Source: Candidatus Woesearchaeota archaeon (GTDB lineage: Archaea > Nanobdellota > Nanobdellia > Woesearchaeales > 21-14-0-10-32-9). Taken from it: a stretch of 37,694 nucleotides of DNA. The stretch covers positions 1 through 37,694 of the forward strand of contig SLQZ01000062.1 of the NCBI GenBank assembly GCA_007131205.1. The letters are read 5' to 3'. A model generated the notes under the pieces. It worked only from the letters and a program-made list of their open reading frames with translations, did not search any database and was not told the origin of the DNA. Positions 6,356 to 37,623 of this stretch are shown here, one piece after another (position 1 is the stretch's first letter; every line of letters begins with the position of its first letter). A program made the translations under genes and the position numbers.

Positions 6356-6529
6356 ATGTCAAGGTTCATAAACATAGCTAAAAAGCTAAGGCTTATAAAG
6401 AAGTCAAGGCAGGACAGGTGGGCTCCGTTCTGGACGGTTCCTAAGATATACGGTACGGGCAGGCGTATACACCCTGGAAGGCATACAACCGTAAAAAGAA
6501 ATTGGAGAAGGAATAAGACCAAGGTGTAA
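6356..6529 (+). CDS. rpl39e: Ribosomal protein L39e (eL39)
   Basis: Hand translation gives MSRFINIAKKLRLIKKSRQDRWAPFWTVPKIYGTGRRIHPGRHTTVKRNWRRNKTKV*. 57 aa, below the ORF-track cutoff. It sits in the canonical position before L31e. Confidence 0.8.
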   Translation: MSRFINIAKKLRLIKKSRQDRWAPFWTVPKIYGTGRRIHPGRHTTVKRNWRRNKTKV

Positions 6530-19855: not shown

Positions 19856-20119
19856 TTATTTTTTTACGCCTATTACAGATACCAGGAAAGGCTTCCCGCA
19901 AATAGTTCCAAGCTCTTCATTATTAACGTCAAGGGCGTGCACTTCTACGCCACCAATTTTCTTGTAGTATTCCAAGTCTTTCTTTGCCTCAACCTCGGCA
20001 TTTGAGGACACAAAAACCTTTGCTAACTCACCTTTCCTGAGAAGCTTTAAAGTCCTGTCCGTGCCGATAATTATTTTATCTGTGTTCAAGAGTTTTCTTA
20101 TTTCATCAATCACAATCAT
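19856..20119 (-). CDS. rpl30e: Ribosomal protein L30e (eL30)
   Basis: KIIIGTDRTLKLLRKGELAKVFVSSN ... LGTICGKPF. Conserved position after rpoA''. Confidence 0.85.
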   Translation of the reverse strand: MIVIDEIRKLLNTDKIIIGTDRTLKLLRKGELAKVFVSSNAEVEAKKDLEYYKKIGGVEVHALDVNNEELGTICGKPFLVSVIGVKK

Positions 20120-27586: not shown

Positions 27587-27660
27587 TGGGTCGGACGAGA
27601 TTTGAACTCGCGACCACCTGGTTAAAAGCCAGATGCTCTACCTGGCTGAGCTACCGACCC
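27587..27660 (-). tRNA. tRNA-Lys (anticodon UUU), no intron, CCA not encoded
   Basis: Hand-folded: GGGTCGG/TA/GCTC-AGCCAGGTA-GAGC/A/TCTGG-CTTTTAA-CCAGG/TGGTC/GCGAG-TTCAAAT-CTCGT/CCGACCC/A. Confidence 0.9.
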
Positions 27661-27700
27661 GCCATCGGAATGCTCAGGCCGTATTTGGGTCTTTCTAAAA

Positions 27701-27775
27701 CGCCCTGGCCGGGATTCGAACCCGGGTCGAAGCCTCGACAGGGCTTCATGATAGGCCAGACTACACTACCAAGGC
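27701..27775 (-). tRNA. tRNA-Asp (anticodon GUC), no intron
   Basis: Hand-folded: GCCTTGG acceptor pairs with CCAGGGC. Anticodon arm AAGCC-CTGTCGA-GGCTT. T arm CCGGG-TTCGAAT-CCCGG. Confidence 0.85.
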
Positions 27776-27953
27776 ATTGCGAAGGGATAACTGGAAGGTT
27801 TTTCCTGATTGAACATTAAAGAAAAACTTTGCTTTCCCATTTTGCGAATAATACCCTAATGTGCACGGCGCTGAACATTCCACGGAGTTTTGGTGAAACT
27901 CGGTTGATTTATAAACCTTACGGTGGTGTTTCCTTGTTTTGAGAGCGGGTGAA

Positions 27954-28107
27954 TCCCTCGGGGGAGACTTTCAGCCAATCCAACCACTTGAAAATGGATT
28001 TGAACTCCCAACCTCTCGGTCTCAGCTGACCTTGTTTCATCCATACCCCTTCGGGCTAGTCACAAGGATTTCTACAGCCGAGCGCTCTACCGTTGAGCTA
28101 CCGAGGG
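27954..28107 (-). tRNA. tRNA-Tyr (anticodon GUA) with two introns (~51 nt at the canonical 37/38 site; ~31 nt between T-loop and 3' T-stem)
   Basis: Exons: CCCTCGG TA GCTC AACGGTA GAGC G CTCGG CTGTAG[51-nt intron]A CCGAG AGGTT GGGAG TTCAAAT [31-nt intron] CTCCC CCGAGGG A. The C1-G72 pair fits archaeal tRNA-Tyr identity. All stems pair once the two inserts are removed. Confidence 0.8.
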
Positions 28108-28135
28108 AAACCCGTAACAGCAGGATAAATAGCTG

Positions 28136-37515: not shown

Positions 37516-37623
37516 TGGGGCTGCCCGGACTTTCATTAATAATGACTGGTGCCAAAGTATTAGTTTGAACCGGGGGCTTCAGGTCCCAAACCTAAAAGGT
37601 TAGCCAAGCTACCCCACAGCCCC
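37516..37623 (-). tRNA. tRNA-Pro (anticodon UGG) with a ~34-nt intron between T-loop and 3' T-stem
   Basis: GGGGCTG TG GGGT AGCTTGGCTA ACCT T TTAGG TTTGGGA CCTGA AGCC CCCGG TTCAAAC [TAATACTTTGGCACCAGTCATTATTAATGAAAGT] CCGGG CAGCCCC A. All stems pair only if the 34-nt insert is removed. Confidence 0.75.

Follow-up and report, generated by a model that had tools for sequence, protein, structure and literature searches.

A tRNA-Tyr(GUA) gene with a canonical intron and a bulge-helix-bulge intron at the T-loop site 59/60 in a Woesearchaeota genome

The stretch of DNA analyzed here (contig SLQZ01000062.1 over its full length of 37,694 nt; hereafter, the window) belongs to a metagenome-assembled genome (MAG) of a Woesearchaeota archaeon (DPANN), which comprises 0.93 Mb in 84 contigs, has a GC content of 41%, and is rated 99.94% complete. 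On its minus strand, the window contains a genuine tRNA-Tyr gene with two introns, a type of split gene already known in archaea. The gene and its surroundings are laid out as follows (window coordinates).

28125..28130, minus strand: TATA-like ATTTAT, a candidate archaeal promoter proposed from reading the sequence, about 20-25 nt upstream of C1
27954..28107, minus strand: complete pre-tRNA-Tyr(GUA) gene, 154 nt, with C1 at 28107 and the discriminator A73 at 27954 (ARAGORN on the spliced product)
28072..28107, minus strand: exon 1, positions 1-37 (acceptor 5' strand CCCTCGG, D-arm, anticodon-stem 5' strand, loop CUGUAG)
28021..28071, minus strand: intron 1, 51 nt, at the canonical 37/38 site
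28035..28063, minus strand: putative K-turn-like module in intron 1 (N-GA-C, covarying hairpin, G-GAU-GA), recognized by its sequence and resembling a C'/D' box pair
27999..28020, minus strand: exon 2, positions 38-59 (A38, anticodon-stem 3' strand CCGAG, variable loop AGGTT, T-stem GGGAG, T-loop UUCAAA)
27968..27998, minus strand: intron 2, 31 nt, at the non-canonical site 59/60 in the T-loop, UCCAUUUUCAAGUGGUUGGAUUGGCUGAAAG
27954..27967, minus strand: exon 3, positions 60-73 (U60, T-stem 3' strand CTCCC, acceptor 3' strand CCGAGGG, A73)
27700-27776: neighbouring tRNA-Asp (ARAGORN)
27587-27660: neighbouring tRNA-Lys (ARAGORN)

Read along the minus strand, the precursor has the order CCCTCGG-TA-GCTC-AACGGTA-GAGC-G-CTCGG-CTGTAG-(51 nt)-A-CCGAG-AGGTT-GGGAG-TTCAAA-(31 nt)-T-CTCCC-CCGAGGG-A. 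With both inserts removed, ARAGORN called a 72-nt tRNA-Tyr(GUA) in which the stems of 7/4/5/5 bp are all paired, and with the T-loop insert alone removed it called a tRNA-Tyr with a 51-nt canonical intron. The archaeal tRNA-Tyr markers C1-G72, discriminator A73, and anticodon GUA are all present; together they form the identity-element rule of archaeal and eukaryal TyrRS. An earlier, sequence-only reading of this DNA had obtained a full cloverleaf with C1-G72 only after taking out two inserts, and the 51 and 31 nt that it gave for the inserts, like its stem sequences, proved exact to the nucleotide, as did the position of the longer insert after position 37, which ARAGORN calls as a canonical 37/38 intron. 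Its expectation that standard finders may miss the gene was borne out by both tools: on the window, ARAGORN called only tRNA-Lys and tRNA-Asp, and the unspliced tRNA-Tyr gave only a partial match of 21.2 bits to the Rfam tRNA model (RF00005), below the 29-bit gathering score. Orthologues of the gene were found in 38 of 41 relatives searched. The spacer between tRNA-Tyr and tRNA-Asp contains a BRE/TATA-like motif (CCGTAAGGTTTATAAA; 27908-27923, minus strand) that is kept downstream of tRNA-Tyr in many relatives (L003, L004, L006, L008, L009, L013, L102) and probably serves as promoter for the tRNA-Asp/Lys unit downstream, here with a leader of ~110 nt.

A bulge-helix-bulge (BHB) intron has two 3-nt bulges on opposite strands with a 4-bp helix between them, and the splicing endonuclease EndA cuts after the second nucleotide of each bulge. 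Intron 2 has this motif in its strict hBHBh' form. The outer helix h is the 5-bp T-stem itself (GGGAG/CUCCC), which is kept in the fold; the central helix H pairs U54U55C56A57 with UGAA at intron positions -6 to -3 (4/4 pairs); the two bulges, A58A59|U and AG|U60, are 3 nt each; and an inner stem closes the intron, with a 1-nt offset in the inner helix h'. The motif is present in the minimum free energy (MFE) folds of both the T-arm with its insert and the whole precursor. The EndA cleavage rule thus puts the splice site at 59/60, with the intron spanning 27968..27998.

We grouped the presence and absence of this intron by genus labels. Among 17 orthologous tRNA-Tyr copies from 16 genomes of the Woesearchaeota family, 11 carry an insert at 59/60, distributed over the genera as listed here.

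Genus g1: insert in 3/3 (G000, the genome under study, G001, G002); without, none
Genus g2: insert in G013 (two copies) and G003; without, G011 and G006
Genus g3: insert in G010, G017, G016, and G015; without, G007, G014, and G004
Genus g4: insert in G008; without, G005

In all 11 inserts H is UUCA/UGAA, with bulges of the form AA^N and A(G/A)^U. They range from 20 to 87 nt in length. Outside the constrained end their sequences are unrelated, but an internal stem forms in nearly all of them (e.g., AAACAAA/UUUGUUU, CACG/CGUG, AACC/GGUU, AAAGUUGUCG/CGACUUUAC). In the six copies without an intron the sequence is GGGAG/GTGAG-TTCAAAT-CTCCC/CTCAC, precisely the empty site, and intron-less orthologues score 57-60 bits over the full length of RF00005, compared to 21 bits for the gene studied here. 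In a strict pattern search with one genome per GTDB species, the Tyr 59/60 signature was found only in eight Woesearchaeota records of the group. The looser pattern GTTCAAA-N12-42-TGAAARTC occurs 41 times in the family versus 10 times for a reversed control, and its matches, where resolvable, belong to Tyr, Pro(UGG), and one Cys. In a more distant Woesearchaeota MAG (SRP269290_co2_81, L185), tRNA-Tyr has three inserts, located at the canonical site, in the variable region, and at 59/60 (GGAATCTTTCTTAAGAAGAAAGCTCTGAAAG).

The exact position of the T-loop cut and the functional state of the gene both admit another reading. The sequence-only reading had left the site between 59/60 and 60/61, and the exon/intron boundary is indeed degenerate in this copy (AAA|UC...AAG|UC), such that splicing at 59/60, 60/61, or 61/62 would give the same mature sequence. 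Only the 59/60 register, however, places the cuts after the second nucleotide of 3-nt bulges that flank the 4-bp UUCA/UGAA helix. The relatives point the same way: in L004, L006, L007, L011, L012, L014-L016, and L102 the introns begin with A or C, and the U60 of intron-less copies is restored only by 59/60. This model gives U60 throughout the family, whereas a cut at 60/61 would leave U, C, or A at this position, with the variation confined to the intron-bearing copies. BHB geometry and the conserved U60 thus settle the earlier choice at 59/60, and a cut at 60/61 or 61/62 is highly improbable.

A gene that standard finders do not call, in a genome split over 84 contigs, could also be a pseudogene that was inactivated by the T-loop insertion, with Tyr decoding left to another gene. 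Against this, the four stems and the conserved tRNA nucleotides are all intact, the strict BHB has been kept in 11 orthologous copies while the remainder of the insert diverged, both G013 copies bear the intron, and a genome rated 99.94% complete contains no other Tyr-like sequence (BLAST of the Tyr precursor against all 84 contigs). ARAGORN did call a second 'tRNA-Tyr' (C4:2432-2550, minus strand), which has G1-C72 and U73 and whose intron-less orthologues in G002 and G005 read GCAGA-CTTGTAA-TCTGC, identifying it as tRNA-Thr(UGU). The tRNA-Tyr(GUA) described here is therefore the only tRNA-Tyr in the assembled sequence of this 84-contig, ~100% complete MAG. The sequence-only reading had tied pseudogene status to a lack of BHB structure together with an intact tRNA-Tyr elsewhere; here the BHB forms and the assembled contigs contain no other tRNA-Tyr, and we consider inactivation the least probable of the alternatives, with a negligible chance of being correct.

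Besides tRNA-Tyr, non-canonical introns interrupt at least four other tRNA genes of this genome (Pro-UGG at 59/60, Gly-UCC at 53/54, Thr-UGU at 30/31, and Cys at 8/9).

37516..37623, minus strand (window): tRNA-Pro(UGG), with a 34-nt strict-BHB intron at 59/60 (37530..37563; H = UUCA/UGAA; bulges AA|C and AG|U)
G000:C41:877-977, minus strand: tRNA-Gly(UCC), with a 30-nt BHB intron at 53/54 (897-926; H = UCCG/CGGA)
G000:C4:2432-2550, minus strand: tRNA-Thr(UGU), with a 26-nt intron at 30/31 (H = CGGC/GCCG) and a 20-nt intron at 37/38, separated by a 7-nt micro-exon
G000:C19:6350-6486, plus strand: tRNA-Cys(GCA), with a 20-nt intron at 8/9 (6360-6379; H = GGAG/CUCC, short outer helices) and a canonical intron

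In every non-canonical intron found in the genome, the 4-bp H is perfectly paired and both bulges are 3 nt long. The tRNA-Pro(UGG), missed by both ARAGORN and Rfam, keeps its 59/60 intron in G001, G002, and others, in three of the four family genera, and shares with the Tyr 59/60 intron only the structurally forced UGAAAG end. The tRNA-Thr(UGU) is intron-less in the same-genus genome G002. Sites 59/60, 53/54, and 30/31 are published positions of non-canonical introns (PMC4090602). At G000:C63:5205-5331 (minus strand), ARAGORN calls a Phe(AAA) with an intron; judging from its acceptor, T-arm, and what may be a long variable arm, it may instead be a type-II tRNA that is interrupted several times and was mis-called.

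As a control for chance, each BHB-compatible interval (4-bp central helix, outer helix of at least 3 bp, inserts of 10-110 nt) was excised from the whole 930-kb genome and ARAGORN was run on the product. The real genome gave 217,851 candidates, and the only new loci were tRNA-Tyr, tRNA-Pro(UGG), tRNA-Gly(UCC), and tRNA-Gln(UUG), together with one dubious Phe(AAA) on contig C25. From a first-order Markov-random genome matched in size and dinucleotide content, 235,545 candidates were obtained, and ARAGORN called no tRNA among them.

Intron 1 is conserved across the order. We scored its structure (anticodon stem, strict-register H, covarying inner helix, and covarying hairpin) in 21 sequences and found 89.7% of cells paired, with 63 compensatory cells versus 20 in shuffles; the inner helix h' (CCUUGU/ACAAGG) covaries with 4-9 compensatory changes per pair. 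No textbook BHB was obtained in the strict register from these 21 sequences, and the motif is weaker than that of intron 2. Folding of the exon-intron junctions, suggested by the earlier reading as a check, gave the strict motif at intron 2 and, at intron 1, an H of 3/4 pairs (C32-G, G34-C, and U35-G), with U33 unpaired in 21/21 sequences. The 3' end of intron 1 (CAGCUGAG, 28021-28028) is complementary to positions 27-34 (CUCGGCUG, 28074-28081; both minus strand), a pairing that rivals the anticodon stem and the BHB, and this competing helix (6-8 bp, with a 6-bp core at positions 29-34) is favoured over the BHB by RNAalifold and by the full-length MFE fold. A loose contig pattern for intron 1 matched mostly random bacterial sequence; 16 of 120 loci fetched were real tRNA-Tyr.

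The K-turn, the motif bound by L7Ae, consists of a C-stem, a 3-nt bulge, tandem sheared G.A/A.G pairs, and an NC-stem. A K-turn consensus of this kind (N-GA-C / G-(G/A)AU-GA between two covarying helices) fits 20/21 intron 1 sequences as a sequence pattern: the conserved GA and GAUGA stay unpaired, 20/21 sequences have the closing C-G pair, and the hairpin pairs show 7-11 double changes. The module is kept in tRNA-Tyr introns throughout Woesearchaeota/Nanoarchaeia, at a fixed distance of 11 nt from a CUGA-like element downstream. In the genome under study, the introns of Cys, Leu(UAG), and Leu(CAG) contain comparable GA-hairpin-GAUGA modules, with the canonical intron of tRNA-Cys(GCA) carrying GA-GCCA-GAAA-UGGC-GAU-GA. 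We found no description of this module in the literature. By its sequence it may be an L7Ae site, and both L7Ae and fibrillarin are encoded in the genome. The window also contains a second, weaker ORF of the L7Ae family (PF01248; 87 aa, 19859-20104, minus strand, 53.7 bits), which is probably ribosomal protein L30e or similar.

Box C/D sRNAs have a C box (RUGAUGA) and a D box (CUGA) in a terminal K-turn, and a free guide of 10-12 nt complementary to the target. Intron 1 does not qualify as such a guide: GGAUGA and CUGA lie 11 nt apart without a C box, those 11 nt are paired in cis, and there is no Rfam C/D match. A K-turn across the splice junction (G37 and the first intron A against the GA of CUGA) fails as a general feature since CUGU, CCGU, and CCAA variants exist, and an H/ACA-like architecture was rejected because intron 1 has neither a pseudouridylation pocket nor an ACA box. 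The euryarchaeal tRNA-Trp intron, inside which a box C/D guide RNA was reportedly described by Clouet-d'Orval in 2001, resembles intron 1 as a canonical intron with K-turn-forming GA and GAUGA elements; unlike it, Tyr intron 1 lacks the C box and the free guide. The tRNA-Trp intron of the genome studied here has GCCGAUGA...CUGA and looks like a classical box C/D RNA.

The splicing machinery comprises an EndA gene (C70:7531-7791, 101 bits; L001, 1474-2091, minus strand) and RtcB (C30:22781-24079, 566 bits); a search of 15 family genomes failed to recover RtcB in 5 of them. Two class-Ib aaRS genes are also present. EndA is a 205-aa ORF with the Pfam N- and C-terminal domains PF02778 and PF01974, and a phmmer search (--max, all six-frame ORFs) gave no second EndA or beta paralogue below E = 0.9. 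Among PDB entries it is most similar to the N. equitans alpha subunit (3IEY_A, 3e-37), followed by the M. jannaschii alpha4 enzyme (1A79, 7.5e-36). Residues 33-205 align to 1A79 with two 1-residue gaps, and the C-terminal Trp W202 aligns with the Trp of N. equitans alpha. Compared to A. pernix alpha, there is a 9-residue gap exactly at the Crenarchaea-specific loop (CSL, K44), and compared to N. equitans a 6-residue gap at the Lys/Arg loop 90-98. By alignment, the protein has no inserted lysine-bearing specificity loop (CSL/L1, ASL/L2, or NEQ/L3; loop definitions and positions from PMC3488258 and PMC5829648). A 32-residue Lys-rich N-terminal extension (MPAKKKATKKKKAKEELLPVIEEEKEQKAKKKK) precedes a core of ~170 aa, and from sequence comparison the enzyme looks like a plain alpha4 type with a Lys-rich N-tail. 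Inspection of the subunit type, another check suggested earlier, thus returned a single alpha-type EndA.

The sequence-only reading had taken multi-intron tRNAs with T-arm introns to imply a broad-specificity endonuclease. Such an endonuclease would be an (alpha-beta)2 or epsilon2 enzyme or one with a specificity loop. Introns at 8/9, 30/31, 53/54, and 59/60 in one genome, the weak outer helices of the Thr 30/31 (~1 bp) and Cys 8/9 (2 bp) introns, and the mismatch in H of Tyr intron 1 would be in keeping with such an enzyme, and disrupted tRNA genes of DPANN have been tied to EndA inserts (Kaneta 2018, PMC5829648). However, a single EndA gene was found, it aligns almost without gaps to the M. 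jannaschii alpha4 EndA and shows gaps at the A. pernix CSL and the N. equitans loop, and all non-canonical introns here carry the core that narrow-specificity enzymes accept. Enzymes of the alpha4 and alpha'2 types cut strict BHB motifs only, and such motifs are transplantable (PMC3488258, PMC4090602). Because the BHB of intron 2 is strict, an ordinary alpha4-type EndA should cut it at any position, and a broad-specificity enzyme is not needed. We therefore regard the requirement for one as unlikely, and the earlier implication does not hold for a strict BHB and a single alpha-type EndA without the CSL or the N. equitans lysine loop.

The same reading had placed T-arm introns mainly in Thermoproteales and a few other lineages. 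These sites are published there, but the lineage here is Woesearchaeota (DPANN), in which disrupted tRNA genes and alpha4 EndAs had already been surveyed, with one Woesearchaeota genome included (Kaneta 2018, PMC5829648). The closest parallel is the pre-tRNA-Cys(GCA) of ARMAN-2 (Ca. Micrarchaeum acidiphilum), which has a 59/60 intron (Fujishima 2011, PMC3239211; Hirata 2012, PMC3488258; Kaneta 2018, PMC5829648). ARMAN-2 is likewise a DPANN archaeon with a BHB-type intron exactly at 59/60 in the T-loop, and G016 of the family studied here also has a tRNA-Cys, with 59/60 and 37/38 introns. The ARMAN-2 motif, however, is a relaxed hBH and is cut by a three-unit epsilon2 EndA with a specificity loop, whereas the motif described here is a strict hBHBh' in tRNA-Tyr, with a single alpha subunit without the loop. 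Multi-intron tRNA genes of Thermoproteales and other Crenarchaeota (Sugahara 2008, Fujishima 2010; reviewed in PMC4090602) similarly combine canonical and non-canonical introns at sites including 30/31, 53/54, and 59/60, whose presence varies between close relatives. They differ in having an (alpha-beta)2 EndA with the CSL and introns that often share sequence, suggesting transposition, whereas the Tyr and Pro introns have only the UGAAAG end in common. The pre-tRNA-Glu(UUC) of Methanopyrus kandleri, with canonical and D-loop introns (PMC5829648), is also a two-intron precursor and its EndA lacks a specificity loop, but its second intron is a relaxed HBh' in the D-arm that is cut inefficiently, and its EndA is (alpha-beta)2.

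Taken together, this is very probably a tRNA-Tyr(GUA) of a Woesearchaeota (DPANN) genome from which two BHB introns are removed by EndA and whose exons are joined by RtcB. Gene structure, motif, and conservation are read directly from the genomes, and cleavage and ligation would follow the established biochemistry of EndA and RtcB. Transcription would yield the 154-nt precursor, which EndA would cut at the two BHB motifs. For intron 2, the precursor would refold such that U54-A57 pair with the UGAA near the intron 3' end and the T-stem serves as the outer helix, and each 3-nt bulge would be cut behind its second nucleotide; RtcB would then ligate the exons to the 72-nt tRNA-Tyr, to which CCA would be added.

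For the Woesearchaeota family, these results make 59/60 a recurrent intron site (Tyr, Pro, and Cys), and because its occupancy varies within genera it provides clean material for studies of BHB intron gain and loss. Not only tRNA-Tyr but also at least four other essential tRNAs (Pro-UGG, Gly-UCC, Thr-UGU, and Cys) are missed or mis-called by ARAGORN, and three also fall below the Rfam tRNA threshold; accordingly, in the output of automated pipelines the decoding set of this MAG and of related DPANN MAGs would look incomplete. Non-canonical intron positions are here paired with an EndA that has none of the described specificity loops, which supports the idea that position is irrelevant if the BHB core is strict. 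More speculatively, and with little confidence, the minimal, loop-less, single-subunit EndA of Woesearchaeota might handle BHB introns at five or more tRNA positions (8/9, 30/31, 37/38, 53/54, and 59/60), perhaps aided by an L7Ae-binding K-turn module in canonical introns (Tyr, Cys, and Leu) that steers the precursor from the competing helix to a cleavable BHB. If true, this would give intron K-turns a role in protein-assisted folding that is distinct from box C/D guiding.
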